A stretch of 64,000 bases of DNA from Thermoanaerobaculia bacterium (GCA_036005845.1 DASYQD010000018.1:13333-77332), one strand, 5' to 3'; shown: positions 5,963 through 46,713, counted from the first letter of the stretch. Program-made: numbers and translations. The notes: a model not told the origin generated them from the sequence alone.

Positions 5963-5982
5963 CCCGGTGTGCGTCCCGGTGT

Positions 5983-6536: not shown

Positions 6537-6540
<4 letters not shown>
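5983..6540 (-). CDS. ActD-like membrane protein (DUF3341 family), paralogue of ACIII subunit ActD
   Basis: Only the C-terminal ~185 aa of track ORF 5983..7857 are protein-like. This part aligns with ActD at 16854..17402 (EFDSPAAL.../...SWPAFVP...). A GTG at 6540 overlaps the stop of the upstream ActC-like gene (GTGA). Confidence 0.65.
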
Positions 6541-8006
<1,466 letters not shown>

Positions 8007-8023
8007 TCAGCTCCCTCGCGTCA

Positions 8024-8056
8024 CCGCGTTTGTGGTTGGGGGCCCCGCGTTTGGTG
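8024..8056 (-). promoter_or_regulatory. direct repeat pair CCGCGTTTG(N)TG in the 155-nt leader upstream of the actC'-actD'-actF'-cox operon
   Basis: Two copies (about 8024-8035 and 8045-8056) lie 20-50 nt upstream of the ATG at 8006. Candidate regulator binding site. Confidence 0.25.
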
Positions 8057-8160
8057 CCCGCTTCTTACCAAGGGTCCGGGGGCGGGTCAAGTGGCGGCCG
8101 GCGGCGGCCGGACCGGGCCTGCGCGGAGCGTATGCCGGCGCCGCGAAGGGCCTTCCCCAG

Positions 8161-8197
8161 GTCATTGCGAGGAGCGCAGCGACGAAGCAATCTCGAC
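8161..8197. repeat. second copy (left arm only) of the 60227 palindromic element
   Basis: GTCATTGCGAGGAGCGCAGCGACGAAGCAATCTCGAC. Lies at the 3' end of the radical SAM gene, in the leader region of the cox operon. Confidence 0.5.
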
Positions 8198-9406
8198 GCT
8201 GGGAGCGCCGAAAGAGGGCGCCCGCCCGCTGCCCTGGATGGCTTCCTCCATCAGCTCCGGGGTCACTATGGGCGAACTGCGGCGGCGGGCGAAGGCCTCG
8301 ACGCCGCGCTCCACCTTGCCGCGGATGAAGGCGATGGGGATGCGCTCCAAGCGGGCGCGCGCGGCGGGGTTCCACACCAGCGGGCGTTCGTCGAGCGGCA
8401 CGCCGGTAGGGATGTAGGTGCAGCCGGGGTCCTCGGCCAGCACGTCCCCGGTGTGCGCGTAGGCGCGGCAGCGGCAGCCGCCGCAGAGGTCGCGGAATTC
8501 ACAATTGCCGCACCTGCCGCCGAGGAGCGAGGTGTCGCGCAGCGACTGCAGTAACGGCGCCTCCCGCCAGATGCGCGCGAAGCCGCCGTCGTCGCGGACG
8601 TTGCCGGCGACGGCGGTCATGTAGGGGCACGGCGTGACGTCGCCGTCGGGCGTGATGCGGCAGTAGTCGACGCCGGCCATGCAACCGCCGCTGTCGAGCC
8701 CCGCCTCGCCCTCCTCGTAGGCGATGCGCTTGAAGTGCGGCGCGCACTTGGCGCGCACGAGCATCGGCCGGTACTGCTGCTGCAGGGTGACGAGCCGGCG
8801 CAGCATCGCCTCGCCGCGGGCCGGCGGCAGCTCGTGCATCGTCTCACCGCGCCCGGTCTGGACGAGGAAGTAGAGGTTGAACGACCAGGCGCCGAGCCGC
8901 CGCGCCAGCTCGAGCAGCGGCTCGACCTCGTCGTAGTTCTCCTCCATCACCGTCGTCTGCACCAGCACCTCGAGCCCGCGCGCGCGGCAGACCTCGAGCG
9001 CGCGCACCGAGGCGGCGAAGGCGCCGCGGCCGCCGCGGAATCCGTCGTGCCGCTCGGCGTCGATCGAGTCGATGCTCACCGCCACCCCGCGCACGCCGCA
9101 CTCGACCATCCGCGCCGCCACCGCATCGGTGACCAGCACGCCGTTGGTCCCCATCACCACCCACAGGCCGGCGGCCGAAGCGGCCGAGGCGATCTCGTAA
9201 ATGTCACGGCGCAGCAGCGGCTCGCCGCCGGTGAGGATCACCATCTCCGTCCCGAGCGCCTTCATCTCCGCCAGCACCGAGAGGCACTCCTCAGTCGACA
9301 GCTCGTGCGCCGCCGCCTTCCCCGCCTCCATGTAGCAGTGCGGGCAGCGCAGATTGCAGCGCTTCGTCAGGTTCCAGGAGACGAGGGAAGGTCGGAACGA
9401 TGCCAT
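8162..9406 (-). CDS. radical SAM enzyme with C-terminal SPASM domain (AhbD/NirJ-like; possibly haem/cofactor maturation)
   Basis: N-terminal CNLRCPHC (CX3CX2C) motif and a C-terminal Cys cluster (CGNCEFRDLCGGCRC). 414 aa. Confidence 0.8.
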   Translation of the reverse strand: MASFRPSLVSWNLTKRCNLRCPHCYMEAGKAAAHELSTEECLSVLAEMKALGTEMVILTGGEPLLRRDIYEIASAASAAGLWVVMGTNGVLVTDAVAARMVECGVRGVAVSIDSIDAERHDGFRGGRGAFAASVRALEVCRARGLEVLVQTTVMEENYDEVEPLLELARRLGAWSFNLYFLVQTGRGETMHELPPARGEAMLRRLVTLQQQYRPMLVRAKCAPHFKRIAYEEGEAGLDSGGCMAGVDYCRITPDGDVTPCPYMTAVAGNVRDDGGFARIWREAPLLQSLRDTSLLGGRCGNCEFRDLCGGCRCRAYAHTGDVLAEDPGCTYIPTGVPLDERPLVWNPAARARLERIPIAFIRGKVERGVEAFARRRSSPIVTPELMEEAIQGSGRAPSFGAPSVEIASSLRSSQ

Positions 9407-9518
9407 GACAGCGTGCGGAGATCCTAGCCGCTCGCGCTAGTCGATAACATGCCCTCGTGGGTCGCTACGACAAGCTCTTCGAGGCCGTCCTCGGCGGTCG
9501 TTACAACCTGGAGCTGCC

Positions 9519-9737
9519 ATGACCGCGCACAGGTACGAGGTCATCATCTACTGGAGCGACGAAGATCGGTGCTTCGTCGCCGACGTGCCCGAACTGCCTG
9601 GCTGCATGGCGCATGGTGATTCCTACGAGGCAGCGTTGGCGAGCGCGCAAGAGGCCATCGATCTCTGGCTCGACACGGCCGCGGAGCTCAACCGGCCGAT
9701 TCCGCAACCCAAGGGCCGGCGCCTGACCTACGCCTAG
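9519..9737 (+). CDS. hicB: HicB-family antitoxin (UPF0150), apparently orphan
   Basis: 72 aa (YEVIIYWSDEDRCFVADVPELPGCMAHGDSYEEAL.. pattern typical of HicB N-domain). No intact hicA partner nearby. Confidence 0.75.
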   Translation: MTAHRYEVIIYWSDEDRCFVADVPELPGCMAHGDSYEAALASAQEAIDLWLDTAAELNRPIPQPKGRRLTYA

Positions 9738-9785
9738 GTCGGAGCCGTGGCGTGGTTGGGCCGTTGGCCGGCCGCGACCGCCTGC

Positions 9786-10151
9786 CTACTCGCGGACGCC
9801 GTAGGTCGTCTGCTGCACGCGGATCGCCGGCACGCGCCGGGCCCAGTAGTCGGACCAGGTGATGCCGAAGATGGTGAGCAGGAAGAGGATGGCGGCGACG
9901 ACGCACAGCCGCACCATGGCGGTGCTGTACTTGACGTGCATGAAGAAGAGCACCACCAGCGTCGCCTTGGTGAGCGCGATGGTGATGGCGACGACGTCGT
10001 TCCAGGGATCGCCGAGGTGGTGGAAGGCGACGAATACCGTGAGCGCCGTCAGCACCAGCAACGCACTGAACACCGCTAGGTAGGTGCTCACCGGGATGAC
10101 TTTGTGGGCGAGCGGGTAGTCGCCCGGCTTGTCGAGGTGCAACCGGGGCAC
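9786..10151 (-). CDS. ctaF: cytochrome c oxidase subunit IV (CtaF/CoxD family), second copy
   Basis: The track ORF 9786..10730 has a spurious N-terminal extension overlapping coxC. A GTG at 10151 lies directly after the coxC stop at 10154 and gives ~121 aa with 3 TM helices, homologous to 1893..2234. Confidence 0.6.
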   Translation of the reverse strand: MPRLHLDKPGDYPLAHKVIPVSTYLAVFSALLVLTALTVFVAFHHLGDPWNDVVAITIALTKATLVVLFFMHVKYSTAMVRLCVVAAILFLLTIFGITWSDYWARRVPAIRVQQTTYGVRE

Positions 10152-10153
10152 TG

Positions 10154-10867
10154 TCAATACCTCCCCAGCAGGTACAGCAGCGGGAAGAGGAAGATCCACA
10201 CGATGTCGACGAAGTGCCAGTACAACCCGAAGAGCTCTACCGGGTGCGCGTACTCGACGGTGAACTTGCCCTTCGCCGCCAGCGGGATGTAGACGAGCAG
10301 GATGCCGGCGCCGATGATCATGTGGATGGCGTGCATCCCGGTCATCGCGAAGTAGAGGCAGAAGAAGAGCTGCACGTGCCCGCCCTCGCCGGCGGGGAAG
10401 TGGGCCTGGTTGAAGTTGTAACCGGGAACGAGCCCGTGGTGGAACTTCTCGGCGTACTCGAAGTACTTGATGACCAGGAAGACGGTGCCGAGCAGCAGCG
10501 TCAGCACCAGGAACGACGTGAGCAGCTTGCGCCGCCCGGTCTGTGCCGACCACACTGCCATGGCCATGGTGAGCGACGAGGTGATGAGCACCGCGGTGTT
10601 GATGCCGCCGAGCAGGATATTGAGCTGGTGGCTGCCGAGGTGGAAGGCCTGCGGATAGAGGAAGCGGTAGACGAGGTAGGCGGTGAAGAGGCCGCCGAAG
10701 AACATCGCCTCCTGCGCCACAAACGCCCACATGCCCAGCGTCGAGGCGTCGCGCTGCTGGTCGAGGCTGTCGAAGTGGTGCTGCAGCACGCCGGCGTGCG
10801 CGTGCGCGTCGGGCGCATGCGTATCGGACGGCACGATGCCGCCGTGCGGCCGGGCGTCAGCGGCCAC
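10154..10867 (-). CDS. coxC: cytochrome c oxidase subunit III
   Basis: 237 aa with COX3 profile ([18 protein letters not shown]). Confidence 0.9.
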
Positions 10868-10893
10868 GGTGGCCCCCCTCTCCGCGCGCCGCC

Positions 10894-12528
10894 TCAGGCC
10901 GCAACTTTCTTCTCCCCCTCACCGTTGCGGTGGTAGTCGTACGCCTCGTGGTCGACCACCGGCGCGACGTCGAAGTTGAAGGTCGGCGGCGGCGAGCTGG
11001 TCTCCCACTCGAGCCCCACCGCGTTCCACGGGTTCGCTCCCGCCTTCTTGCCGTAGCGCATCGCCCACACCAGGTAGATCATCGGCAGCAGGTAGCCGAC
11101 GCCGAGCACCGTGGCGCCCGCCGTCGACAGCACGTTGAGCACCTGGAACTCCGGCGCGTAGGCGTGGTAGCGGCGCGGCATCCCCATGTAGCCGAGGATG
11201 AACTGCGGGAAGAAGGTGAGGTTGAAGCCGACGAAGACGAGGATCGCCGAGATGCGCCCCCAGAACTCGGGGTAGAGCCGGCCGGTGATCTTCGGCCACC
11301 AGTAGTGGAGGCCGCCGAGGTAGCCCATCAGCGTGCCGCCCACCATGATGTAGTGGAAATGCGCCACCACGAAGTAGGTGTCGTGGACGTGGATGTCGAA
11401 GCCCATGGTGGCGAGAAAGACTCCCGTCAGGCCGCCGATGGTGAAGAGGCCGAGGAAGCCGAAGACGTAGAGCATCGGCGTCTGCCACGACACCGAGCCG
11501 CGGTAGAGCGTCGCCGTCCAGTTGAAGACCTTGATCGCCGAGGGGATGGCCACCAGCATGGTGAGCACCGAGAACAGCGTCCCGGCGAACGCCGTCTGGC
11601 TGGAGACGAAGAGGTGGTGCCCCCAGACCAGGAAGCCGAGCACCGCGATCGCCATCGACGAGAAGGCGACGAACGAGTAGCCGAACACCCGCTTGCGCGA
11701 GAAGGCGGCGACGAGCTCGCTGATGATGCCCATCGCCGGCAGGATCATGATGTAGACCGCCGGGTGGGAGTAGAACCAGAAGAGGTGCTGGAAGAGCACC
11801 GGGTCGCCGCCCAGCGTGGGGTCGAAGATGCCGAGGTGCAGCGCCCGCTCGAGCATCAGCATCACCAGCGTGATGGCGAGGATCGGCGTCGCCAGCATGA
11901 TGATGACGCTGGTGGCGTAGAGCGACCAGACGAAGAGCGGCAGCCGGAACCACGACAGCCCCGGCGCCCGCATGCGGTGCACGGTGACGATGAAGTTGAG
12001 CGCGGTCAAGATCGACGAGAAGCCGGCGATGAAGCCGGCAAGGGCCACGAGGGTCACCGGCGAGTTGGAGAAGCGCGTCGAGAAGGGTGGATAGAAGGTC
12101 CACCCGGTGTCGGCGCCGCCCTGGATGAGCGCGTAGACGCCGAGCGAGCCGGCCACCATGTAGACGTACCAGGAGAGCAGGTTGATCTTCGGGAAGGCGA
12201 GGTCCTTGGCGCCCAGCATCAGCGGCAACAGGAAGTTGCCGAGCACCGCCGGGATCACCGGGATCAGGAAGAAGAAGATCATCACCACGCCGTGCATGGT
12301 GAACAGCCGGTTGTAGGTGTCGGAGGAGACGAAGTCACCTTCCGGCGTCAAAAGCTCGATGCGTACCAGGCCCGCGAAGATGGCGCCGACGGCGAAGAAC
12401 AGCGTCACCGAGCCGAGGTAGAGCAGCGCGATGCGCTTGTGGTCCTTGGTGAGCAGCCAGCTCTTCACGCCGTAGGCGGCGTTGAGGTAGTTGGGCCGCA
12501 GCGTGCGCGCGGCGACGGCGGCACTCAT
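10894..12528 (-). CDS. coxA: cytochrome c oxidase subunit I
   Basis: The track ORF extends to 13239, but its first 237 aa overlap coxB in another frame. The ATG at 12528 overlaps the coxB stop (ATGA). 544 aa with COX1 signatures ([19 protein letters not shown]). Confidence 0.95.
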
Positions 12529-13562
12529 CGGGCGCCTCCTTGCGTGGCTGGAGCGGCGGCCGGCGCTGCTGCTGCCGCGGCGGGCGCCGGTGCGGCCGGA
12601 GCCTGCGGCTGCGCCGCCGGTCCGCCGCCCGCCTCGCCCAGGCTCTTGACGTAGGCGATCAGCTTGAAGAGGTTCTCCTCGCTGATCTGCCCCTTGTAGG
12701 TCGGCATGATCGGCTGGTAGCCGGCGACGACGTCGGCCGGCGGCTCGAGGATCGAGCGCCGCACGTAGCTGGCGTCGGCGACGATGGTCTGTCCGCTGGC
12801 GAGCTGCACCGGCTTGCCGAAGACGCCGCGCAGCGACGGCGCGCGGCCGCCGCCCGCCTCGACGTGGCAGGTGTTGCAGCCGATGGAGGCGAAGAGGTCG
12901 GCGCCCGCCGCGGCCGGCGCCTTGTCGGCCTGCGCGCCGCCGGCGAGCCAGTGCTCGTAGTCCTCGGGCGTCATCACCGTCACCCAACCCACCATGCCCG
13001 AATGCTGCGTGCCGCAGTACTCGGCGCAGAAGAGGTGGTAGGTGCCGGGCTTGGTCGCCTCGAACCAGAGCGTCGTGTACCGGCCGGGCACCAGGTCCAT
13101 CTTGGTGCGGAAGGCGGGGATGTAGAGGCTGTGGAGGACGTCCTCCGCGATCATCTCGATCTTGATCGGCTGCCCGGTGGGCACGTGCAGGGCGTTGATC
13201 TCGCGCTGCCCCTCGGGATGCTGGAAGCGCCACATCCACTGCTTGCCGGTGGCGGTGAGCTCGAGCGCGTTGGCCGGCGGCTCGACCTGCAGGAAGAACA
13301 CGCGCGCGCCCCAGAAGAAGAGGAAGAGCACGATGCCGAGCGGGATGATCGTCCAGGTCACCTCGAGCAGCATGGAGGCGTGGAAGCTGCCGCCCACCTC
13401 GTCGGCCGAGCGGCGCCGGTAGCGGACGGCGCAGTAGACCACCGAGGCGGCGATGAGCAGCGAGAAGAAGGCGCTCATCGCCACCAGGAAGACGTAGAGC
13501 GCGTCGACCTGGCCGGCCATCGTCGAGGCCGCCTCGGGGAAGAGTGGGAAACCGGAGTGCAT
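12525..13562 (-). CDS. coxB: cytochrome c oxidase subunit II fused to a C-terminal cytochrome c domain (caa3-type)
   Basis: CuA motif [11 protein letters not shown]...[12 protein letters not shown] plus a C-terminal CNTCH haem-binding motif and an Ala/Pro-rich tail. 345 aa. Confidence 0.9.
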
Positions 13563-14435
13563 CTAGGTGGACACCTCGATCCGGGAGGGGCGGTTCATCG
13601 CAATGCGGCCGCGGCGCTCCTGCCGCAGCATGAAGGCGATGAAGGCGCCCAGCGCCAGCACGGTGAGCACGCCGCCGATGCGCACGAGACGCATCGTCAG
13701 CAGCGTGTACTTGCCGGTCATCGCGTCGTAGTGGAAGCAGTAGAGGAGGACCTGGTCGGCGAAGGTGCCGAGGCGGCCCGCCGAGGCTTCGACCATCGCC
13801 AGGCGAAGGTCCTTCGGCGCCGGCTCGGTGGTGTAGAGGTAGCGCGCGATCCTGCCCTGCGGCGTCGCCATCACCAGCGTCGAGGCGTGCACGAACTGGC
13901 CGCCTTCGGCCTTGTAACGGAAGCCGATGGCGCGGGTCATGGCGGCGATCGCGCGCGCGTCGCCGGTCAGGAAGTGCCAGCCGGCGTCGCCGCCGGCGCG
14001 GCCGAAGGTGGCGAGCGCGTCGGCCTTCTTGCGCCGTGCGTCGGCCGCCGTGTCGCGCGGGTCGAAGCTGAAGACGACGAGCTCGTAGTCGGTCCGCGCG
14101 CCGAAGGTGAGCATGCGCAGCGAGCGCGCCAGGCCTTCGAGCGCCAGCGGGCAGAGCATCGGGCAGTTGTAGTAGACCGGCACCACGATCACCGGCTTCT
14201 TGCCGAAGTACTGGCCGAGGCGCACCTCGGCGCCGGTCTCGTCGCGGAGGCGGACGTCGAGCGGGAGCTGGCCGCCGACGTGGCGGTCGATGCCGACGTC
14301 GCGCAACGCCGGCGGCAGCACCGACGCCGCGGGGTCGTCGGCGCGCAGCGGCGCGGGGTTCGCCAGAGTGAATACCGTCGCGACGGCCGCCGCGAGCGCG
14401 CCGAGCGCGACGATGCGTGCGCGCCGCGCGCTCAC
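13563..14435 (-). CDS. SCO1/SenC copper chaperone (thioredoxin-like, CxxxC)
   Basis: CPMLCP motif and a conserved downstream His. Membrane-anchored. Start GTG overlaps the upstream stop (GTGA). Its stop abuts the coxB ATG. Confidence 0.85.
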
Positions 14436-15010
14436 CGGTGCGCCTCCGGTGTCGGGGCAGGAGTGGCGCTCGTGGTCACGACAGGTGCGGCACCAGCCGC
14501 GGCCGGCTCGGCGGTCATCGCCGGCACGGTCGCCCTCGCGGCAGGCGCCGGAGTCGGCGCCGCCGCCCGCGCCGGCAGCCCGCGCGCCGCCAGGATGTCG
14601 ATCGCGCGCTCCACCGGGATGTGCGCGACGCCGGCGGCCTGGTCGACCCAGCCGTAGCTCTCCAGCCGCTCCTTCTCCCCGCGGCGCACGCGTTCGAGCT
14701 CGCGCTCGGGCCGCGCCAGCAGCTGCGGCGCCGCCGCCCTGGCCGCCGGCGCGACGAGCGGCTGATTGGCCGCCGCCGCCTCCGCGCGCCAGCTCACGAA
14801 GCCGCGCAGCAGGAAGAAGACGCCGACGCCCGACAGCAGGGCGGTGACGAGCAGCGCGACGCCCATCCAGATCAGCTGGTGGTACTGGATCTCGCGGTCG
14901 AACTCCACCGACTCGTGCGGCGGCTCGTACGGCGCCTCGTGGGCGTGCGCGTAGCCGCCGGCGGGCGCCAGGCCGGTGCCGTGCGTGCCGGGCGGCCGCG
15001 GCTCACTCAT
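14432..15010 (-). CDS. single-TM hypothetical protein, positional candidate for ACIII subunit ActG
   Basis: 192 aa with one TM helix ([23 protein letters not shown]) and an Ala/Pro-rich C-terminus. Start overlaps the actF stop by 8 nt. Confidence 0.45.
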
Positions 15011-22861: not shown

Positions 22862-23752
22862 ATGCGCGAGAGCACGCTCCAGGCGACGGCGGGAGTGCGC
22901 CTGCGCGATTTTCTCGGCCTCGCCAAGACGGGCATCACCGCGATGGTGGCGCTCTCGGCGGCGGCGGGGATGCTGCTCGCGGCCGACGACGGGCCGACCT
23001 CGCCGGCGCTGTGGTTCCACACCTTGCTCGGCACGGCACTGGTGGCTGCGGCGGCATCGGCACTCAACCAGGTCGTCGAGCGCGACGTCGACGGCTTGAT
23101 GCGCCGCACAGCGCAGCGGCCGCTGCCGGCGGGGCGGATGCAGGCCGATGCCGCGGTGGCGTTCGCGGCGCTCCTCGGCGGCGGCGGGCTGCTCGAGCTG
23201 GCGCTGGGCGCCAACCTGCTGGCGGCGTCGCTGGCGGCCGCGACGCTGGTCGGTTACGTCGCCGTCTACACACCGCTCAAGCGCGTCAGCTCGCTGTCGA
23301 CCGTCATCGGCGCGATCCCCGGCGCGGTGCCGCCGATGGTCGGCTGGGCAGCGGTGACCGGCACGCTCGGGCCCGGCGCGTGGGCGCTCTTCGCACTACT
23401 CTTCTTCTGGCAGATGCCGCACTTCCTCGCCATCGCCTGGCTCTACCGCTCCGACTACGCTCGCGGCGGCTTCCCGATGCTGTCAGTGGACGACGAAGGC
23501 GGCCTGCGCACGTCGCGGCAAGCGCTTCTGTACTGCGCGGCGCTCGTGCCGGTGAGCCTACTGCCTGCGGCACTCGGGCTCGCAGGCGCCGTCTACTTCG
23601 CCGGCGCGCTCATTGCTGGCGGCTGGTTCCTCGCCGCGAGCGCGGCGTTCGCGCTCGACCGCAGCGCGCCGGCCGCGAAGCGGCTGATGCTGGTCTCGGT
23701 GTTCTACCTGCCGGCGGTGCTTGCCGCGCTGGCGGCCGACCGGCTGATCTGA
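22862..23752 (+). CDS. ctaB: protohaem IX farnesyltransferase (haem O synthase)
   Basis: 296 aa polytopic UbiA-family protein with NQ..ERD.D..M.RT..RPLP motif. Confidence 0.9.
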   Translation: MRESTLQATAGVRLRDFLGLAKTGITAMVALSAAAGMLLAADDGPTSPALWFHTLLGTALVAAAASALNQVVERDVDGLMRRTAQRPLPAGRMQADAAVAFAALLGGGGLLELALGANLLAASLAAATLVGYVAVYTPLKRVSSLSTVIGAIPGAVPPMVGWAAVTGTLGPGAWALFALLFFWQMPHFLAIAWLYRSDYARGGFPMLSVDDEGGLRTSRQALLYCAALVPVSLLPAALGLAGAVYFAGALIAGGWFLAASAAFALDRSAPAAKRLMLVSVFYLPAVLAALAADRLI

Positions 23753-23916
23753 GCTGATCGCGGCTGCGCGGTGCTGGGTCGTAATGCCCTCACGAGAGCG
23801 TGTTCCCAGAGTGAGGCCCGCCGTGCTGCTCCGTGACGCCGGTCCGGCCCGCTACCAGTGACGGGGCTTTGCCCAGCAAATCGCTCCTGCCCAAATAATC
23901 GGCAGGCTGCCAAAGG

Positions 23917-24141
23917 TCACTTAGCGTCGGGAAGGATGTCCGCCGCGCGGAGCGCTAGCCGGCGCAGCCATGCGCTCAACTTCAAGCCGTCACGCGCGGC
24001 AGCAGCCTCAAGAGCGCGCTTCTGCTCGGCCTGGATGCGCATGCGCACGACGTCATCCTTGAGCGCCTTGCCGGCCGGCGGGCCGGCCCTCCTCTTCGCC
24101 TGGGTCACGGCGTTAGATTGTGGGCGGATGTAGCTACACAT
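23917..24141 (-). CDS. ribbon-helix-helix protein, MobC/CopG-like (relaxosome accessory or antitoxin-type)
   Basis: ...RRAGPPAGKALKDDVVRMRIQAEQKRALEAAAARDGLKLSAWLRRLAL. Start is uncertain: track ORF starts at 24234, and the ATG at 24141 gives 74 aa. A TGTAGCTACA palindrome abuts that ATG. Confidence 0.5.
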   Translation of the reverse strand: MCSYIRPQSNAVTQAKRRAGPPAGKALKDDVVRMRIQAEQKRALEAAAARDGLKLSAWLRRLALRAADILPDAK

Positions 24142-24604
24142 CAAGTCAGCGTCCGCCAATGGTAGTCGGGCACCTTGAGGTACTTCCGGAGCGCTCGACG
24201 CATGACCTCGCTCTCGCTGAGCAGAGTTGGCCATCCAGCGCGATCCCGGCCTGTTCGCCTATTACTATCCGCCAAGCGGGGCGGTCTTCGTCAGGTGCGT
24301 CCACTGCGCCAAGTGCGGCGAGGAGTCCGCCTTTGGGTTCACCACAGGCGCAGATGACCGTGAGCGATTGGCGCGGATCGCCCTGCCGCAGAGCGCCCTA
24401 AGCCAGGCTGTCACTTCAAATGACCAGCGCCGCCTTGTGGCGCGGCGCGAAGCCTCAGCGGCCGCTGCCGCTACCACCGCCCGCATGGCTTGCCCTGCGC
24501 CGCCTTCCTCGCCGTGGGCATCTTGTGGCGCCCTGGAGACGAGTGGCACGCAGCGGCGTGCATCTGCTATGTCGCGTCGGCTGGTGCCGCGCCAGAAACG
24601 GGCG

Positions 24605-24844
24605 CTATTGCTTAGTCGTCGCCGTCAGCTTCTTTGAAGGGAAGAAGTGCCAGAAGACCGGATAAAGAGTCCCGGTCAAGAAAGACTCCACTAGGGCGAT
24701 TGGCCATGAACGGCAAAAAAAGATGAGCGCCACGGCGAGGCCCAAGTACACAAATCCTGCCAAAAGAACGAGCCACACCTTGGCACCGATGTCGGCAATA
24801 ATCTTGTAGGCCTTAGCCTGCTCTTCGGTGATGCGCTCGGGCAT
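24605..24844 (-). CDS. small 2-TM membrane protein (island gene, unknown function)
   Basis: 79-86 aa depending on start (TTG 24865 or ATG 24844). Two hydrophobic helices. Low GC. Last gene of a three-gene minus-strand operon. Confidence 0.4.
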   Translation of the reverse strand: MPERITEEQAKAYKIIADIGAKVWLVLLAGFVYLGLAVALIFFCRSWPIALVESFLTGTLYPVFWHFFPSKKLTATTKQ

Positions 24845-24857
24845 GGCTGTCGGCAGC

Positions 24858-25220
24858 CTAGGCAACGACGCTGTAGACTTCGATTACCTGCAACTTGCGC
24901 GGATCGAATTGGCACTCCTCGCCTTCAGCCTCGCACACATGACAAACAACGGTTGCGGGCACGCGCTCGCCCGCCGGCACGTACTCAGCAATGTTCTTGT
25001 CGCGAGGGCAGAGATAGCCGTGCCGCTTGGCGAATAGGCCCTCTCTCACGGCGAGTTCGCATAACATATGAGCTACACGGTAAGGGACACGAAAGAAGCT
25101 GCGGATATTCTCGACGTAGATGTTTTGTGGATCGGTGTTGCGCATTAGCTCGGCACGGCGTGCGAACGCATCCCCAATCCAGCTCCTATCCATTGCGCCG
25201 ACGAATCTCTCGAACCACAT
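24858..25220 (-). CDS. Cys-rich hypothetical protein (possible zinc ribbon, CHVCEAEGEEC)
   Basis: 120 aa. Overlaps the upstream gene by 35 nt. No recognisable family. Confidence 0.4.
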   Translation of the reverse strand: MWFERFVGAMDRSWIGDAFARRAELMRNTDPQNIYVENIRSFFRVPYRVAHMLCELAVREGLFAKRHGYLCPRDKNIAEYVPAGERVPATVVCHVCEAEGEECQFDPRKLQVIEVYSVVA

Positions 25221-26043
25221 AGGCCGCCCCTTGGTCTAAATGGGAAAACGTCCTGAAGCTAACGATGCCCTTGGTCGGGTCTACTGTGAAGTGATCCAGG
25301 CCGATGCTGTCCCCCATCCACTTGAAAGTGGTGGCAAGCAGCGGCTTGTCGCGCAGATCGTCGTATAGAGATGGATCGTCTCTCTTCACCAAGTAGTTTC
25401 CGTCCATCACCTGACGCGTCGTCGCGCGCGCCTTCTTAAACTGCACAGCCGGGGCGTCGATCAAACCTTCGTCCCAAAGCGCCTTCACTCCCTCGTTCAA
25501 GTCCTCGGGATGTACATCGGAAAGGCCGAGAGAATCGAACACAAGGATCTCCACCATCGCTTCGTCTAGATCCTTGATGCTTCGTATGACTCGACCCGGC
25601 TCGTACTGAGCTGCAAGATTCTTCTCCATAATCGTAAAGCGCAGTTCTAAACTGTTCCGACCGCACGTGACGTGCACGGGCCAGAGATAATCGACGGCCT
25701 TCTTCTCTAGTGGATCGGCAAGGTAGACAACGTAGGGAAGGTCCAGCAGATAGAACCAGCTACGGCTCGTCCTAGCGGGGTCGCTTGCCAGCAACCGACC
25801 ATCGTCAAGCAACCCCTCAGGCAGATCGCGTACTGTGACGTCCGAACACCTGTGGAGGTGCACATGGTGCTTTGTCGTGAGATGGTGCGTGATGATAAAC
25901 GCGTCGACCTCGCCCCCGTCGCGGGAGCCCAGGATTGCTTCGATGACCTGTGCCTTGGTGCCGGTCGGTAGATCGAAGTACTGCCGCAGCTGTTCAAGGG
26001 GATACAGATCTAGTAAGCGAACGGCAAGTGGATTCTGAGCCAC
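25186..26043 (-). CDS. hypothetical protein (285 aa, no recognisable domain), first gene of island operon
   Basis: The track ORF extends to 26448 through high-GC sequence. A GTG at 26043 is preceded by a strong Shine-Dalgarno (GGAGGGGGC-GTG). Low GC. Confidence 0.5.
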   Translation of the reverse strand: MAQNPLAVRLLDLYPLEQLRQYFDLPTGTKAQVIEAILGSRDGGEVDAFIITHHLTTKHHVHLHRCSDVTVRDLPEGLLDDGRLLASDPARTSRSWFYLLDLPYVVYLADPLEKKAVDYLWPVHVTCGRNSLELRFTIMEKNLAAQYEPGRVIRSIKDLDEAMVEILVFDSLGLSDVHPEDLNEGVKALWDEGLIDAPAVQFKKARATTRQVMDGNYLVKRDDPSLYDDLRDKPLLATTFKWMGDSIGLDHFTVDPTKGIVSFRTFSHLDQGAAYVVREIRRRNG

Positions 26044-26233
26044 GCCCCCTCCAGACCTGTTGAACCAGTGGACTACGGCAGACCATACCGCAGATCGTGA
26101 CGAGAGGAGCCAGGGCGTCACGGGCGGCCGTGGATGCGCCGGCCGCCAGTCTAGCGCACTCCTCGGCCAGACCCTGGTCTGCGACCGACCTCCGGACAGG
26201 CGGCACATCCCGCAAGCCACGAATCGCCCCGGG

Positions 26234-26262
26234 TTGACTTGTCGAAATGTCGCCAATAAAAT
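26234..26262 (+). promoter_or_regulatory. sigma70-like promoter (TTGACT-17nt-TAAAAT) driving a near-leaderless transcript for the 26269 ORF
   Basis: Consensus-like -35 and -10 boxes with 17-nt spacer. ATG at 26269 is 7 nt after the -10. Direct TGTCG repeats and a TGTCGC/GCGACA inverted repeat overlap the -10 and start codon. Confidence 0.5.
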
Positions 26263-26268
26263 AGGCCC

Positions 26269-26910
26269 ATGAGCGACAACGACCACCACCCCGACGGGAT
26301 AGCGAAGCGCGACAGCCTCACTCCGCTCAACGCCTGCGTCCACGCCGCGCTGGAGCACGGCGTGGGGCTGGCTCAGGCGTTCTTTGAAGGGCGCCAGCTT
26401 GACCCGTGGCTGTTCGCTCACATTGTGCGCTACGGGGTGCTGGAGCACCTACCGGACGCCATCGTCAACGTGGACGATTACGGCGTCACACGCAACGCCA
26501 TGTGCGGCGTGGAGATTCACGCTGACGGTTGCTCCATTCGGATCTGGAAGAAGCCCAGGGCCGAGGATGAGTATCTCCAGCCTCCAGGAGAGTCGGAGGT
26601 CCGCCAATCCTTCTACTGGCAGCAGATCCCTCTGCCTTTCGCAGTCGAGCAGCAGCTACCTCAGCCGGACAACTTGGCGTATGTCTGGGAAGCCTTGCCC
26701 TCCGGGACAATGAATCTGTTCCTCGTCAAGCCGAGCGGCATCGAAGGAATCTGGAAGCCGGGTCTATTCGAGTGGGCCGTTCCGGTGCCGCATCCGGCGG
26801 AGCTGGTCACCGTCGGTACCGACTTCCTCGAGGGCGACGAGGACGAAGATCTGGATATCGACCTGCCAAACGCGGGTTCTGGTGGCGGCGAGCCCAACGG
26901 CGGAGCCTAA
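26269..26910 (+). CDS. hypothetical protein with acidic C-terminal tail (213 aa)
   Basis: ORF begins immediately after the promoter. No recognisable family. Co-directional and adjacent to the XRE/ImmA-like gene. Confidence 0.5.
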   Translation: MSDNDHHPDGIAKRDSLTPLNACVHAALEHGVGLAQAFFEGRQLDPWLFAHIVRYGVLEHLPDAIVNVDDYGVTRNAMCGVEIHADGCSIRIWKKPRAEDEYLQPPGESEVRQSFYWQQIPLPFAVEQQLPQPDNLAYVWEALPSGTMNLFLVKPSGIEGIWKPGLFEWAVPVPHPAELVTVGTDFLEGDEDEDLDIDLPNAGSGGGEPNGGA

Positions 26911-26917
26911 GGCAGTC

Positions 26918-28024
26918 ATGGCGGCAGTCAACGGAGAACGCGTCAAGCAGGCGCGCGAGATACGAGCGCTTACGCAGGGTGAGCTTGCAGAGCGCATCGG
27001 AGTCTCGCAGCCAACCATTTCGCTCATCGAACAAGGAGCGCAGCAGCCATCCGAAGGGGTGCTGCAAGCGCTGGTGCTGGCGACGGGCTTTCCTGTGGGC
27101 TTCTTTCAGAAAGGGAAGGGGCCGGACTTTCCGTCGGGGTCTATGCTCTATCGCAAGTCGAAGAAACTACCGAGCACGCCAGCCAGTCAGTTGCGGCAGT
27201 CGGCGCGGCTTGCTCTGGAGCTGGTCCAAGCCCTCGGCACTCGATTCAAGCCGATCCCCGTGCGGATACCGCTGGTAGGCAGCGGTGATCCGATAGAGGC
27301 CGCGCATGTCGGCCGGTCGGTCCTGGGAGCATCGCCAGACGGGCCGATGACCGGAGTCATTCGGCGCCTGGAGCGCGCCGGGGTGCTTGTCGTATTCCTC
27401 CCCTCGGCGCCCGACGGATTCGACGGCTTCTCCGCTTGGTCCGACGAGGGCGACGGACACGAGAGGCGCCCAATCATTTGCCTTAAGCACGGCGTGCCGG
27501 GCGACCGTCTTAGGCTCACGGCGGCGGAGGAGCTGGGCCACCTGATGATGCATCAGGACTTCCTAGGCGGTTTGAAGGAGCTGGAGCAGGAAGCCGATGA
27601 GTTTGCAGGAGAGTTTCTATTTCCGCAGAGCGAGATGAAGGAGCAACTCAGGCTGCCGATAACACTCGCGCACTTGGGCGAGCTCAAAGCGCGTTGGGGC
27701 GTCTCCATCGCTGCCATCGCACACCTTGCCGAGCAGCGGGGATTGATCAGCGACCGCCAAAAGCGGTACGTGCGGGCAAAGCTGCATGATCGCGGGTGGC
27801 TGCATACGGAGCCGATCCATATCCCGGTAGAGGCCCCCAAGCTTTGGCGCCAGATGGCGGAGGGCATCTTCGGAGCGCCGGTTGACCATAAGCGCTTGGC
27901 GCGCGAGTTTGAGGTCTCCTCTGGCTTCGTTCAACAGTTGATCGAGGTCAACCGGCCGCTAGACGCGAGACCCATTGCTCCTAGCTCTCAGGTTCTTCTG
28001 CGCTTCGACCGCCGTCGCGCCTGA
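26918..28024 (+). CDS. XRE-family HTH fused to ImmA/IrrE-like (COG2856, M78-type) metallopeptidase domain
   Basis: N-terminal HTH (QAREIRALTQGELAERIGVSQPTISLIEQG) and central AAEELGHLMMH. The latter is an ImmA-like motif with the first His replaced by Glu. 368 aa from ATG 26918. Confidence 0.75.
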   Translation: MAAVNGERVKQAREIRALTQGELAERIGVSQPTISLIEQGAQQPSEGVLQALVLATGFPVGFFQKGKGPDFPSGSMLYRKSKKLPSTPASQLRQSARLALELVQALGTRFKPIPVRIPLVGSGDPIEAAHVGRSVLGASPDGPMTGVIRRLERAGVLVVFLPSAPDGFDGFSAWSDEGDGHERRPIICLKHGVPGDRLRLTAAEELGHLMMHQDFLGGLKELEQEADEFAGEFLFPQSEMKEQLRLPITLAHLGELKARWGVSIAAIAHLAEQRGLISDRQKRYVRAKLHDRGWLHTEPIHIPVEAPKLWRQMAEGIFGAPVDHKRLAREFEVSSGFVQQLIEVNRPLDARPIAPSSQVLLRFDRRRA

Positions 28025-28087
28025 ATCGCAGGCTTGACACGTAGCTCGTTGGTAACCACACCGTGGATACTAATTGGAGACGTGGCG

Positions 28088-28519
28088 ATGGACCCAAGAG
28101 AACGGCGCAGACTGGTGATAACGGTAACGGTCCGAATCACTCGGAAGGGTAACGCATGGACTGTTCCTTCTCAGTGAGCGTCCCGAACGTTGGACCACCT
28201 CGGGGAAGTGGCGGTCACCCACCGTTGGCACTCTCGGATGGTGACTGGTAACGATGTCAAGTTTCGCGGGCCGCGGTGGAGAAGCTGCGAGCAGAGCGGG
28301 TGGCGAGATGCGCGTGTGGGGGAGCACCGTGCTAATCAAAACGCTGGCCGAGTACGACCGGTCGACGAGTACCGGCTCGCCGGCTACCCGCTCGTGCTGA
28401 GCACTGGCAAGAAGCTGTTCTCCGACAGGTTCGCGTCACCAGACTTCACCCTGACCGAGTCGCGCGCCGTGCGATCCGGAGGCCTGGTCAACACCTACCG
28501 TGGCGCCGGCTCAGGCTGA
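28088..28519 (+). pseudogene. frameshifted/degraded RibD C-terminal domain (dihydrofolate reductase-family) gene
   Basis: C-terminal frame gives VDEYRLAGYPLVLSTGKKLF...LTESRAVRSGGLVNTY (RibD_C hallmark). Upstream part is in another frame (..VLIKTLAEYD..). A short ORF from ATG ~28088 stops after 29 codons. A TTGACA lies at ~28035. Confidence 0.45.
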
Positions 28520-28672
28520 TCAACCACACCGACAGCTCGTCTCGGCGTTCTGCTTGCCGGCGGTGGTCGCCGCGCTGGCGGGTGACGGGCTGATTGAGCT
28601 GAGCGCGGCGGCGCGGATACGGGACCGCCTGGCGGGGCAGCACGTGATTCACGTGCTAATCTGGGAGCCGCC

Positions 28673-28906
28673 ATGAAGACGAACGTCACGCTCAAGCTCG
28701 ATGCGGATCTCCTCCGCGAGGCGCGCGTGGTGGCAGCCGAAGAGGGGCGATCGATGAGCGCTCTTCTCACCGATCAACTCGAAGGCATCGTGCGCGAGCG
28801 GAAGGCCTTCGTTAAGGCGCGGCGGCGGGCACTTGCCCGTCTCCGAGAGGGTCTCGACCTCCAGTGGACACCGCCCGCATCGCGGGACGAGCTCCATGAG
28901 CGATAG
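28673..28906 (+). CDS. vapB: VapB-type RHH/AbrB-like antitoxin
   Basis: 77 aa (MKTNVTLKLDADLLREARVVAAEEGRSMSALL). Overlaps vapC by 11 nt. Confidence 0.7.
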   Translation: MKTNVTLKLDADLLREARVVAAEEGRSMSALLTDQLEGIVRERKAFVKARRRALARLREGLDLQWTPPASRDELHER

Positions 28907-29348
28907 ACACTTCGTCGACACCAACATCCTGATGTACGCCCACGACGCTGCCACGGGCGAGAAGCATCAAATGGCCCGGGCGCTGGTGGAGCAGTTGTGG
29001 GAGACGAGGTCGGGTGTCGTCAGCACCCAGGTCCTTCAGGAGCTGGCGGTCAACTTGCGGAGGAAGGCCAAGAAGCCACTCGATGCAAGGACGACTCGTG
29101 ACGTCGTGTCCGACTACCTTGCGTGGCACGTTGTCGTGAATGGCGGGGAGTCGGTTCTCGAAGCGCTCGATCTCGAAGCGCGGCATCGCATCTCTTTCTG
29201 GGATGCCCTCCTGATACAGGCCGCGAACGCTTCTGGCGCTGAGATCCTCTACTCCGAGGATCTGTCGGACGGCCAACGTTACGGATCGGTACGAGTCATC
29301 AATCCGTTTCGAGTGAAGGCCCGCGCCGCTCCGCCATCGCCCGGCTAG
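28896..29348 (+). CDS. vapC: PIN-domain toxin VapC
   Basis: MSDRHFVDTNILMYA...FWDALLIQAA, 150 aa from ATG 28896 (the track ORF starts 21 codons earlier). Confidence 0.85.
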   Translation: MSDRHFVDTNILMYAHDAATGEKHQMARALVEQLWETRSGVVSTQVLQELAVNLRRKAKKPLDARTTRDVVSDYLAWHVVVNGGESVLEALDLEARHRISFWDALLIQAANASGAEILYSEDLSDGQRYGSVRVINPFRVKARAAPPSPG

Positions 29349-29360
29349 AATCCGCGGCCG

Positions 29361-30011
29361 ATGGCTGCCATGGCTCCTCCCCCCGTGCGCTGGCTTCCGG
29401 CCGCGCTCGGCGCGCTGCTGCTGATGATGACGATCGGCCTCGGCCTCGTCTGGTGGTGGGGGAGGCAGCCGCCGCCGTCGCTGCCGGTGATGAGCGAGCT
29501 GCCGGCGTTCACGCTCATAGACAAGAGCGGCGCGACGGTCACGCCCGCCACGCTCGCCGGGCGGCCGTGGATCGCCGACCTCGTCTTCACGCGTTGCCAG
29601 CTCTCCTGTCCGCTGATGACCGAGCGCATGGCGTCGCTCGGCCAGCGCCTCGCGCCCGGCGTGCGCCGCGTCAGCATCTCGGTCGATCCGGCGCACGACA
29701 CGCCGGCGGTGCTCGCCGAGTACGCGAAGGTGCACAAGGCGGAGGCGCCCGATTGGCTCTTCCTCACCGGTGACGAAGCCGAAATGCATCGCCTCGCGGT
29801 CGAAGGGTTCAAGCTCGGCGTCGCTCCCGCCGACGCCAGCGATCCGCGCGCCGCGCAGGAGCCGGTGACGCACAGCACGCGCTTCGTGCTCGTCGACGGC
29901 CAGGGCCGCGTGCGGGGGTGGTACGACGCCTTCGACGAGGGCTCGCTGGGCAAGTTGCTGCGCGACGCGGCGTGGCTCGCCGCCAGCAACGACGGGGCCG
30001 CCGGCGGGTGA
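29361..30011 (+). CDS. SCO1/SenC copper chaperone (second copy)
   Basis: N-terminal TM, CQLSCP motif, downstream His (THSTRFVLVD). Confidence 0.85.
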   Translation: MAAMAPPPVRWLPAALGALLLMMTIGLGLVWWWGRQPPPSLPVMSELPAFTLIDKSGATVTPATLAGRPWIADLVFTRCQLSCPLMTERMASLGQRLAPGVRRVSISVDPAHDTPAVLAEYAKVHKAEAPDWLFLTGDEAEMHRLAVEGFKLGVAPADASDPRAAQEPVTHSTRFVLVDGQGRVRGWYDAFDEGSLGKLLRDAAWLAASNDGAAGG

Positions 30012-44036: not shown

Positions 44037-46001
44037 ATGGCCGAAGATCCCCATCAGGAAGAAGCCCTCGGCAAGGCCTACGACGCGCATCTGATGCGCC
44101 GGCTGGTGGCGTACGTCCGCCCCTACCGCGGACAGATGGCGCTCGCCGTCGCGCTCATCGTGCTCTCCTCGGTGCTCGACCTGGTCGGGCCGCTGGCCAC
44201 GGCGGTCGCGCTCGACCTCTTCGTGAAACCGGCCGGCGGCGGCACGGTGTCCGGCCTGTCGCGCTGGGTGCTCGGCCGGCTCGCGGCAGCCGGGCTCCAT
44301 CCCGATCGCGCGACCGGCCTCGCTTGGTGCGGCGTCGTCTACCTGGTGTCGCTGCTGTCGACCTTCGGCGTCCTCTACTGGCAGTCGTACGTGATGCAGC
44401 TCATGGGGCAGCGCATCATGCGCGACCTGCGGCGCGAGGTGTTCGCGAAGTTGCAGCGCCTGCAGGTGGCGTTCTTCGACCGCAACCCGGTGGGGCGGCT
44501 GGTGACGCGCGCGACGACCGACGTCGATGCGCTCAACGAGCTGTTCACGGCGGGCCTGGTGTCGGTGTTCGGCGACGTGGTCACGCTGCTCGGCATTGTC
44601 TGCGTGCTATTCGCGCTCAACTGGCGCTTGGCGCTGGTGACGTTCTCGATCCTGCCGCTGCTGCTGCTCATCACGCTCTGGTTCAAGGCGCGGGCGCGCG
44701 ACATGTACCGCCAAGTGCGGGTCTGGATCGCGCGCATCAACGCCTACCTGCAGGAACACATCAGCGGTATGGCGGTGGTGCAGCTCTTCGGCCGCGAGGA
44801 GCCGGCGCTCGCCGAGTTCCGCGCCATCAACAAGACCCACCGCGACGTCAACGTCAAGACGATCTTCTATTACGCCGTATACTACCCGGCCGTCGAGCTA
44901 ACGACGTCGCTCGGCCTGGCGCTCATCATCTGGTACGGCGGCGGCCGCGTGCTGGCGGGCGCGCTCTCCATCGGCGCCCTCGTCGCCTTCTTCCAGTACG
45001 CGCAGCGCTTCTACGAGCCGATCTCCGACCTCTCCGACAAGTACAACATCCTGCAGGCGGCGATGGCGTCGTCGGAGCGCATCTTCAAGCTGCTCGACTC
45101 GCCGGTGGAGATCGCGACGCCGGCGGCGCCTTACGAGCCTGAGGCGCTGCCGGCGCTGCCGAGCGCCGCCGCGGCGACCGTGCCTGCCGGCCCGCGTGCC
45201 CGCGCCGTGCGCGGCGAGGTCGAGCTCGACCACGTTTCGTTCGAGTACAAGGCGGGCGAGCCGGTGCTGCGCGACGTCTCCTTCCGCATCGAGCCCGGGC
45301 AGTCGGTAGCGGTAGTCGGCCACACCGGCGCCGGCAAGAGCACGCTGGCGAGCCTGCTGCTGCGCTTCTACGACCCGCAGGCGGGGAGCGTGCGCGTTGA
45401 TGGCGTCGACGTGCGGCAATGGGACCTCGGAACGCTGCGGCGCAGCATCGCGATGGTGCTGCAGGATGTCTTCCTGTTCGCCGGCAACTTGGCCGACAAC
45501 GTCACGTTGGGCGATCCGGCGATCAGCGGCGAGCGCCTGCGCTGGGCGGCGCGCGAGGCGCGCGCGTTGGACTTCATCGAGCGCCTGCCGCAAGGCTTCG
45601 ACACCGCGGTGCAGGAGCGCGGCGCGGGGCTGTCGGTGGGGCAGAAGCAGCTCGTGTCGTTCGCGCGGGCGCTGGCGTTCGACCCTGCGATCCTGATCTT
45701 GGACGAGGCGACGTCATCGGTCGACACCGAAACGGAGCAGCGCATCCAGGAGGCGCTCGATCGGCTGCTGGTCGGCCGCACGAGCCTGGTCATCGCGCAC
45801 CGCCTGTCGACCGTGCAACGCTGCGACCGCATCCTCGTCATGCACAAAGGCGAGCTCCGCGAGTTCGGCACGCATCAAGAGCTCCTCGCCCGCCGCGGTA
45901 TCTACTACCGCCTGTATTTGCTGCAGTACCGCGACCAGCTCGGAGGGGAAGTCGGCCCCGCGCCGGATGTGGCGCTGCCGGGTGTAACGTCGCCGCCATG
46001 A
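44037..46001 (+). CDS. ABC exporter, fused permease-ATPase (MsbA/lipid-export-like family)
   Basis: 6-TM domain then NBD with Walker A GHTGAGKST, signature LSVGQKQ, Walker B ILILDEATS. Confidence 0.85.
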   Translation: MAEDPHQEEALGKAYDAHLMRRLVAYVRPYRGQMALAVALIVLSSVLDLVGPLATAVALDLFVKPAGGGTVSGLSRWVLGRLAAAGLHPDRATGLAWCGVVYLVSLLSTFGVLYWQSYVMQLMGQRIMRDLRREVFAKLQRLQVAFFDRNPVGRLVTRATTDVDALNELFTAGLVSVFGDVVTLLGIVCVLFALNWRLALVTFSILPLLLLITLWFKARARDMYRQVRVWIARINAYLQEHISGMAVVQLFGREEPALAEFRAINKTHRDVNVKTIFYYAVYYPAVELTTSLGLALIIWYGGGRVLAGALSIGALVAFFQYAQRFYEPISDLSDKYNILQAAMASSERIFKLLDSPVEIATPAAPYEPEALPALPSAAAATVPAGPRARAVRGEVELDHVSFEYKAGEPVLRDVSFRIEPGQSVAVVGHTGAGKSTLASLLLRFYDPQAGSVRVDGVDVRQWDLGTLRRSIAMVLQDVFLFAGNLADNVTLGDPAISGERLRWAAREARALDFIERLPQGFDTAVQERGAGLSVGQKQLVSFARALAFDPAILILDEATSSVDTETEQRIQEALDRLLVGRTSLVIAHRLSTVQRCDRILVMHKGELREFGTHQELLARRGIYYRLYLLQYRDQLGGEVGPAPDVALPGVTSPP

Positions 46002-46549
46002 GCGAAACCGTGGCGACGCAGCCGGCCGAGGACCTGCGCTATCCGGTGGGAGAGTGGGACCGGCAGCCGGCTGCGGATCCCGCGGCGGTGGCCGCAGCGA
46101 TCGCGACGATCGAGGCGCTGCCGACGCGGCTGCGCGAGGCGGTCGCCGGCCTCGACGACGCGCAGCTCGACACCCCCTACCGCCCAGGCGGCTGGACCGT
46201 CCGGCAGCTCGTCCACCACGTCGCCGACAGCCACCTCAACGCCTACATCCGCTGCAAGTTCGCCCTCACCGAAGACCGGCCGGCGATCAAAGCGTACGAA
46301 GAGAAGCTCTGGGCGGAGCTACCAGAGGCGAAGAGCGCGCCGGTCGAGGTCTCGCTGAAGCTGCTCGAGGCGCTCCACGAGCGATGGGTGCTCGCCCTGC
46401 GCGCGCTCGGGGAAGCGGAGCTCGATCGCCCCTACGTGCACCCCGAGATTGGCGAAATGCCCCTGCGCGCCATGCTGGGAATGTACGCCTGGCACAGCCG
46501 CCATCACGTCGCGCATGTCACGGGGTTCCGGCGGCGACAGGGCTGGTAG
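45998..46549 (+). CDS. DinB/YfiT-like metal-dependent hydrolase family protein
   Basis: 183 aa (WTVRQLVHHVADSHLNAY...AWHSRHHVAH). Start ATG overlaps the ABC gene stop (ATGA). Confidence 0.65.
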   Translation: MSETVATQPAEDLRYPVGEWDRQPAADPAAVAAAIATIEALPTRLREAVAGLDDAQLDTPYRPGGWTVRQLVHHVADSHLNAYIRCKFALTEDRPAIKAYEEKLWAELPEAKSAPVEVSLKLLEALHERWVLALRALGEAELDRPYVHPEIGEMPLRAMLGMYAWHSRHHVAHVTGFRRRQGW

Positions 46550-46713
46550 GTGGCTGTTCGCAGGTTGACCAGGTGTACGTCATACGAGGGCTAGGAGCAT
46601 TCCCGCGCCGTGCCGCGCGCCCGCACAGTTCAGATCCGGCCGTCATCGCTACGACGCGAGCGACCTAGAACTGGAGCCTTTGAGACGCCAGCACTCAGAA
46701 CACCGCAGCGCTC

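Follow-up and report, generated by a model that had tools for sequence, protein, structure and literature searches.

A conserved three-gene cassette of possible defense function lies back to back with a Rosmer-type gene pair on a Thermoanaerobaculia genomic island

Introduction

Rosmer systems were defined by the pairing of a zinc-peptidase antitoxin with a toxin whose function is unknown (Millman et al., bioRxiv 10.1101/2022.05.11.491447), and the ImmA/Rosmer antitoxin node pairs with many different toxins, with the toxin gene first in 58% (Ernits et al., PMC10440598). Pairs of helix-turn-helix (HTH) and M78 proteins such as CapH/CapP and ImmR/ImmA regulate neighboring operons (PMC10440598). 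A more distant point of comparison is the Rex system of phage lambda, in which RexA counts IML3, CHL4, and RdgC among its structural relatives, with a Z score to RdgC of only 4.4 (PMC11077077). Here, we compare these systems with a locus from a metagenome-assembled genome of Thermoanaerobaculia (Acidobacteriota). The locus occupies positions 24605-28024 of a 64-kb window, which is the whole stretch of DNA that was analyzed, and consists of two divergent operons. The leftward operon is a cassette of three genes, which we call A, B, and C, and the rightward operon is a pair resembling the rmrT and rmrA genes of RosmerTA.

The explanation that we prefer, to which we assign a probability of about 55%, is that the locus is a decayed island in the 3' end of ctaB with two unrelated conflict modules placed back to back. 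The finding worth keeping is the A-B-C cassette. The reason is narrower than the one offered by an earlier interpretation of the raw sequence (the sequence-only reading), in which all five genes were taken as a single undescribed module controlled by a fused XRE-HTH/ImmA-like protein.

Results

The A-B-C cassette is conserved as a unit across four phyla

Genomes, metagenomes, and one IMG/VR contig yielded 41 independent loci, which we scored with hidden Markov models (HMMs) of the five proteins A, B, C, RmrA, and RmrT. Wherever enough sequence was available downstream, which was the case for 34 loci, genes A, B, and C stood side by side and collinear. Of the seven others, six end at a contig edge and one (L007) carries a B-like gene in another context. 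At L007, a B-family gene (522..935, E 1e-48) stands between unrelated genes for proteins of 163 and 325 amino acids (aa), with no detectable A or C; it is the sole locus with B outside the triplet.

The coupling of the genes is conserved along with their order. An out-of-frame overlap joins A and B in 26 of 28 loci and measures 32 nucleotides (nt) in 16 of them, 35 nt in 5, 38 nt in 4, and 23 nt in 1. Across phyla, the length of this overlap is always 2 mod 3, so that relative to A, B invariably occupies the +1 frame; the dual-coding stretch looks inherited. The two exceptions come from insertions. The overlap of B and C is mostly 4 or 1 nt. From such tight and conserved coupling, we infer that A, B, and C are co-translated partners. 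L040 and L047 carry 1324 nt (5345..6670) and 174 nt (2075..2250), respectively, of extra DNA between A and B, and gene A is in pieces in L047 and L013; the cassettes of L040, L047, and L013 are likely disrupted copies.

The family is large. A word-index search returned 8 clusters for A and 6 for B, and a profile search of 1.84 billion representatives recovered 341 proteins of the A family at E ≤1e-3, of which 203 reached E ≤1e-30, nearly all of them ~285 aa long and matched from end to end. Carriers include Thermoanaerobaculia, Acidobacteriaceae (Granulicella, Tunturiibacter), gamma- and "delta"-proteobacterial metagenome-assembled genomes, Longimicrobiales, and Bacteroidota (Pedobacter, Aquimarina, Hymenobacter). 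The phyla represented are Acidobacteriota, Proteobacteria, Gemmatimonadota, and Bacteroidota, in addition to one predicted virus. Protein A is 42% identical to the window copy in Longimicrobiales and 36% identical in a gammaproteobacterium, compared to just 26-30% in Acidobacteriaceae. Identities that cut across taxonomy in this way argue for horizontal transfer. In the first four loci compared, what was shared beyond A, B, and C amounted to a few weak matches between flanking open reading frames (ORFs) (29-40% identity).

Cultured carriers are available, namely Pedobacter kyonggii (WP_131032605-607), Aquimarina algicola, Granulicella mallensis, Tunturiibacter psychrotolerans, and Hymenobacter sp. 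YC55. All of the cultured A-family representatives are labeled "hypothetical protein", as are the proteins already on record for the locus itself (VGS57_01960, VGS57_01965, and VGS57_01970). Literature searches by the accessions of cultured homologs, and on the Rosmer mechanism or RdgC/RexA-like defense, returned nothing describing the A-B-C triplet.

A, B, and C match no described family

The sequence-only reading had found no family for four proteins of the locus. For A, B, and C this stands, as searches of Pfam, NCBIfam, PHROGs, and PADLOC gave nothing usable and no described family was matched in those libraries. The A profile had no match in PDB at E ≤10, and 58 A-family members searched against Pfam gave nothing except one spurious YycH match. 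A Foldseek search against the BFVD viral structures found none below E 1e-3, with only faint TBP/RdgC-like hints.

An AlphaFold model of A (predicted local distance difference test score 81.8, predicted template modeling score 0.81) shows four bundled helices at the N terminus and mixed beta-sheet domains after them, and the predicted fold resembles the CENP-N/IML3/RdgC class. CENP-N and CENP-L are the human orthologs of CHL4 and IML3. RexA (8twq) is not among the 60 structure matches listed for A. The invariant residues of the family are K187 and G259, and the near-invariant positions are mostly hydrophobic or structural, with no catalytic-looking set. The most conserved stretch of A, KKxxSTxxExMDE (residues 203-215), is also the sole low-confidence segment of the model, and it would fit a partner-binding loop.

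Protein B has an IYVENIRSFF motif, a core predicted to be a winged helix, and a C-terminal cluster of cysteines (C71, C93, C96, and C103), which in the copies from Bacteroidota and the virus is a complete CxxC...CxxC. Protein C has a conserved C-terminal H-[YF]-F-P motif. Of its hydrophobic helices, the one at residues 23-44 is strong and the second, at residues 46-66, is weaker.

The rightward genes very probably form a Rosmer-type pair

The proposal that the 368-aa HTH/M78 fusion protein belongs to a conflict system was borne out by database matches. Pfam places HTH_3 (E 3.5e-11) and Peptidase_M78 (E 6e-16) in one chain, and 14 RmrA models of PADLOC match the protein, the best with E 2.3e-58 (residues 16-354 against 2-333 of 363 profile positions). 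It also matches the phage regulator family phrog_2439 (E 6e-65) and, weakly, the CapP and CapH models of PADLOC. The 213-aa protein is the one of the four unmatched proteins for which the earlier view did not hold, as it matches the PADLOC RmrT model PDLC03939 (E 1.6e-7, residues 15-178 against 11-178 of 212 profile positions, or 79% of the profile) and thereby RosmerTA. It has a net charge of -22, an acidic tail, and no transmembrane segment, and a profile of its family gave nothing significant in PDB. The two genes are on the same strand in toxin-first order, with 7 nt between the rmrT stop and the rmrA ATG, a layout in keeping with the ImmA/Rosmer node (PMC10440598) and with the definition of Rosmer by Millman et al.

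The word-index search found just three further clusters of the 213-aa family. In all three of the corresponding loci, the rmrT homolog is followed directly by an HTH-M78 gene, whose product is 72% (L020), 56% (L021), or 67% (L022) identical to RmrA of the window. These observations make it very probable that the rightward pair is Rosmer-type. At L020, a SocA_Panacea-domain gene with a 124-aa partner (146..1118, minus strand) lies divergently upstream of the RmrTA homolog. Another toxin-antitoxin-type pair is therefore clustered with Rosmer there, in the slot held in the window by A-B-C.

A promoter-like TTGACT-17-TAAAAT sequence ends 6 nt ahead of the rmrT ATG, with no Shine-Dalgarno sequence. 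This promoter and the first codons (M-S/N-D) are conserved in all four rmrT loci, whereas the remaining upstream DNA is not, and the rmrT mRNA is probably leaderless in all four. Within the spacer between the two operons, conservation is confined to the right-hand ~45 bp, which belongs to the Rosmer pair. Since the promoter travels with rmrTA, the pair brings its own promoter.

The metal motif of RmrA (residues 204-208; 27527..27541) reads EELGH instead of HExxH. Aligned, the sequence is A-E-E-L-G-H in RmrA, compared to A-H-E-L-G-H in CapP (7t5t) and H-E-L-A-H in the L021 homolog. The change is also present in the closer L020 homolog and absent from the more distant one of L021, and RmrA keeps the downstream E..AD.FA block.

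The two halves of the locus are not linked in other genomes

The sequence-only reading had put both operons under the control of the HTH/M78 protein, acting as a protease switch, and had counted them as one module. It had also named a lack of conserved co-occurrence as grounds for refutation. Co-occurrence is conserved within each half and not between them. In the flanks covered, the HMMs found an RmrA- or RmrT-like gene beside the triplet in 0 of 41 loci, the lone weak match (E 8e-4) being more than 3.5 kb away in L034. Conversely, A, B, or C was beside the rmrT homolog in 0 of 3 loci. Genes for 286-aa and 283-aa proteins near the RmrT homologs of L021 and L022, which are A-like in length, proved to be unrelated to A. 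An operator search of the 225-bp spacer returned weak palindromes only.

Because linkage is absent in both directions, control of both operons by the XRE/ImmA protein is not supported, and on the point of linkage between the halves the sequence-only reading fails by its own standard. The protease switch is itself uncertain, since HExxH reads EELGH, and the regulatory account should be dropped. We consider it highly probable that the two modules are independent. The divergent layout of the cassette and the Rosmer pair is clustering within a defense island, not shared regulation.

The cassette is found near defense genes and mobile elements

Among the neighbors of the cassette are DISARM genes (DrmD and DrmMI in L002), an HNH_2 nuclease (L019), a GmrSD_C-like 821-aa protein (L011), and TIR proteins; the window copy has the adjoining Rosmer pair and a VapBC-like pair nearby. 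Tyrosine integrases were found near the cassette in 4 of the first 16 loci, and ISL3 and IS1595 transposases and a resolvase near some copies. The Tunturiibacter cassette is inside a prophage, between the integrase and the major capsid gene, and a 33-kb predicted viral contig (L024, IMGVR_UViG_3300023099_000117) carries the triplet. In tblastn searches with two A proteins, there was no match in 50,697 isolate phage or 72,556 plasmid records. In IMG/VR, patterns from close relatives found none, and an alignment of the Bacteroidota type found one viral contig. Taken together, the context suggests that the cassette is accessory, mobile, and of a conflict type.

The viral contig L024 also encodes, within 400..15000, a TIR_2 protein, an N6/N4 DNA methylase, a homolog of the 37-kD nucleoid-associated protein, an SRAP peptidase, and a gp3 packaging protein. 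A PAPS-reductase-like protein is present as well, an assignment made by eye.

The locus lies on a probable decayed island in the 3' end of ctaB

The five ORFs, the A/B overlap, and the spacer are all where the sequence-only reading had placed them (Table 1), and each of the five has conserved homologs in other genomes, so that they are real genes and not chance ORFs.

Table 1. Features of the locus and its borders (positions in the window)
Feature	Position	Strand	Description
Gene A	25186..26043	-	285 aa, first gene of the cassette; GTG start with GGAGGGGG ahead
Gene B	24858..25220	-	120 aa; 35-nt overlap with A
Gene C	24605..24844	-	79-aa small membrane protein, third gene of the cassette
rmrT-like gene	26269..26910	+	213 aa; putative toxin/effector
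rmrA	26918..28024	+	368 aa; putative antitoxin/repressor; ORF runs back to a GTG at 26882
Divergent intergenic region	26044..26268		225 bp between A and rmrT
Promoter, sigma-70-like, TTGACT-17-TAAAAT	26234..26262	+	upstream of rmrT
Hairpin, GC-rich	24589..24605		just past the gene C stop; pattern match only
Left direct-repeat copy	23689..23748	+	60 nt; functional ctaB 3' end; left island border
Right direct-repeat copy	28535..28594	+	60 nt; decayed, displaced ctaB 3' end; right island border
Ribbon-helix-helix protein, NikA/MobA-like	23917..24234	-	NikA-like E 8e-6, just short of the Pfam cut-off; weak MbpA/MobA matches

Horizontal acquisition of the island, which had also been proposed, is supported by its low GC content and by a direct repeat that brackets it. 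The GC fraction is 0.56-0.64 between 24,000 and 29,000, compared to ~0.70 in the flanks, and this low-GC stretch sits between ctaB (UbiA family, 22862..23752, E 1e-53) and SCO1/SenC (29361..30011). The two 60-nt repeat copies, one on each side of the island and 4846 nt apart, are 85% identical. They read LVSVFYLPAVLAALAADRLI followed by a stop in the left copy against LVSAFCLPAVVAALAGDGLI... in the right copy, from which the stop codon is lost. The repeats mark where an element inserted itself into the 3' end of ctaB. With no integrase left in the island and no tRNA anywhere in the window, we read the ~4.85-kb island as decayed. An Rfam scan of 23500..29500 gave no noncoding RNA match. The hairpin past gene C may mark the end of the leftward operon; in the pattern search, sites of this type were no commoner in real than in shuffled sequence.

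The ribbon-helix-helix gene is island cargo that belongs to neither module, possibly a remnant of a mobilizable element. A 136-aa ORF (24227..24637, plus strand) has ~60 protein-like residues at its start, including a CxxC motif (CVHCAKCGEE), followed by an Ala/Arg-rich remainder like out-of-frame high-GC DNA; it is probably a decayed island gene. An ORF at 28190..28519 was suspected to be a dihydrofolate-reductase-like fragment, for which Pfam gave no confirmation.

Further genes of possible conflict function were seen outside the island. Just beyond the right repeat is a VapBC-like pair (28673..29348), in which a ribbon-helix-helix DUF6364 gene (28673..28906) overlaps a gene for a PIN-domain protein that likely starts at an ATG at 28896 and ends at 29348. 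A second low-GC island (46000..50600, GC 0.55-0.64), with small ORFs of no assigned function around, encodes two RelA_SpoT-domain proteins of 495 aa (47486..48973, minus strand) and 277 aa (49393..50226, minus strand), which may be small-alarmone-synthetase toxins of the toxSAS/CapRel-like kind.

Discussion

We propose that two unrelated conflict modules share this island. In the Rosmer-type pair, by analogy with characterized Rosmer systems, RmrA would neutralize RmrT and, by way of its HTH domain, probably keep its own promoter repressed, and infection or stress would release RmrT. The A-B-C cassette would be a translationally coupled unit that moves horizontally alone. In it, A would be two-lobed and non-enzymatic, with a fold of the CENP-N/RdgC/RexA class, and would work with B, a predicted winged-helix protein with a zinc-ribbon-like tail. 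Together, A and B may constitute a sensor in the cytoplasm that responds to foreign nucleic acid or nucleoprotein and gates or recruits C, and C would then damage the membrane and abort the infection.

We hold the steps of this proposal with different degrees of confidence. That the triplet is a defense or exclusion system of some kind is plausible, at somewhat under even odds. The architecture of the cassette, the fold class of A, the translational coupling, and the genomic context lead us to a Rex-like reading of phage exclusion or abortive infection. In its full form, this reading makes A-B-C a new and widespread family, a distant three-gene analog of lambda Rex, or a relative of it, with members in at least four phyla and in viruses, and we offer it tentatively. 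The route from a cytoplasmic sensor to a membrane effector, as sketched above, is a doubtful part of it.

Several observations weigh against these interpretations. For the Rosmer-type pair, the RmrT match is modest, at 29 bits, and RmrA is without the first His of HExxH, which puts its peptidase activity in doubt, so that this activity cannot be assumed. For the cassette, about half of the triplet loci have housekeeping flanks. A, B, and C had no match in PADLOC-DB v2.0.0 at E ≤1, and the 58 A-family members had none in PADLOC at E ≤0.01. The net charges of A (-9) and B (-1) are acidic or neutral, which is unusual for DNA binders, and the second helix of C is merely weakly hydrophobic. Finally, a comparison of the 58-sequence A profile with lambda RexA by hhalign gave a probability of 0.1, and on this result we reject membership of A in the RexA family.

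An alternative account of the cassette is that A-B-C is an addiction or stabilization module, in which C is a membrane toxin checked by A, B, or both, B is an autorepressor, and there is no direct role against phage. A small hydrophobic protein does end a tightly coupled operon, the predicted winged-helix fold of B is typical of repressors, and the cassette occurs near integrases and transposases, in a prophage, and on a viral contig. Three conserved, co-translated proteins, one of them a 285-aa partner, nevertheless exceed what a toxin-antitoxin system typically needs. Moreover, the cassette is absent from the plasmid and isolate phage records searched, where such modules are usually common, and many copies have housekeeping genes on either side and no element in the vicinity. 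We therefore regard an addiction module as unlikely.

The housekeeping surroundings of about half of the loci would suit another alternative, namely a cellular, membrane-anchored regulatory unit in which C tethers or senses, A serves as an adaptor, and B is the transcription factor for an accessory trait. The predicted winged helix of B and the absence of catalytic-looking invariants in A (K187 and G259) also speak for such a unit. Its phyletic pattern, however, is patchy and at odds with taxonomy, and conserved target genes are missing from its surroundings, the loci compared having only A, B, and C in common. The low-GC island in the window and the defense genes adjoining the cassette in several loci likewise speak against a cellular regulator, which we judge to be distinctly improbable. 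A single system of all five genes, with the XRE-HTH/M78 protein repressing both operons through the 225-bp spacer and releasing them after damage or infection, has in its favor the divergent genes, the single promoter-like site, several imperfect palindromes in the spacer, and the example of CapH/CapP and ImmR/ImmA together with the weak CapP/CapH model matches, but is very improbable given that the linkage is conserved in neither set of loci, that only the ~45 bp by rmrT are conserved and move with rmrTA, and that HTH and peptidase are fused as in RmrA antitoxins and not split as in CapH/CapP.

Of the two modules that we recognize, the Rosmer pair does no more than extend the range of a known system to Thermoanaerobaculia, with the Glu-for-His metal motif of RmrA as a noteworthy feature. 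The triplet is a useful lead, as it is a sharply bounded unit of invariant architecture with hundreds of members, unannotated in the libraries searched, that recurs by defense and mobile genes and has cultured carriers. If it protects against phage, it would add a new system to those described. In that case, the triplet would also provide a second entry point to the long unsolved question of how signals from Rex-type sensors reach a membrane effector.

The likeness of the cassette to lambda RexA/RexB is one of working alike only. Protein A has ~280 aa, is cytoplasmic, has a predicted fold that may fall in the structural neighborhood reported for RexA (IML3/CHL4 and RdgC, with CENP-L/CENP-N), and is co-transcribed with a small membrane protein, and the cassette occurs on prophage-like elements and islands. 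On the other hand, A has no sequence or profile similarity to RexA, and the cassette has three genes versus two, the extra one encoding the winged-helix/Cys-cluster protein B. RexB is 144 aa long and has four transmembrane helices, compared to 79 aa and one or two helices in C, which has no PADLOC or Pfam match. In addition, A-B-C is unlinked to a cI-type repressor.

RmrA shares both of its domains with CapH/CapP and ImmR/ImmA, in which an HTH repressor and an M78 protease derepress CBASS or ICEBs1 genes, and over the peptidase core it can be aligned to the CapP structure 7t5t (E 2e-4). The domains are separate in those systems and fused in RmrA. The operon beside RmrA is no conserved partner, and the catalytic His is replaced by Glu.

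For the rightward pair, one of the closest described systems is RosmerTA (Millman et al. 2022; ImmA/Rosmer node D25 of NetFlax, Ernits et al. 2023). The pair differs from it in the strong acidity of the 213-aa protein and its lack of a membrane segment, in contrast to the membrane-depolarizing RmrT of Gordonia phage Kita, in the EELGH motif found in place of HExxH, and in its host phylum (Acidobacteriota, Thermoanaerobaculia), which is far from the tested examples. It resembles RosmerTA in having a full-length RmrA-type XRE-HTH and M78 protein, a co-oriented gene directly ahead that matches the RmrT HMM, and toxin-first order. As with RosmerTA, the pair is conserved as a unit among homologs and is sited on a mobile island.

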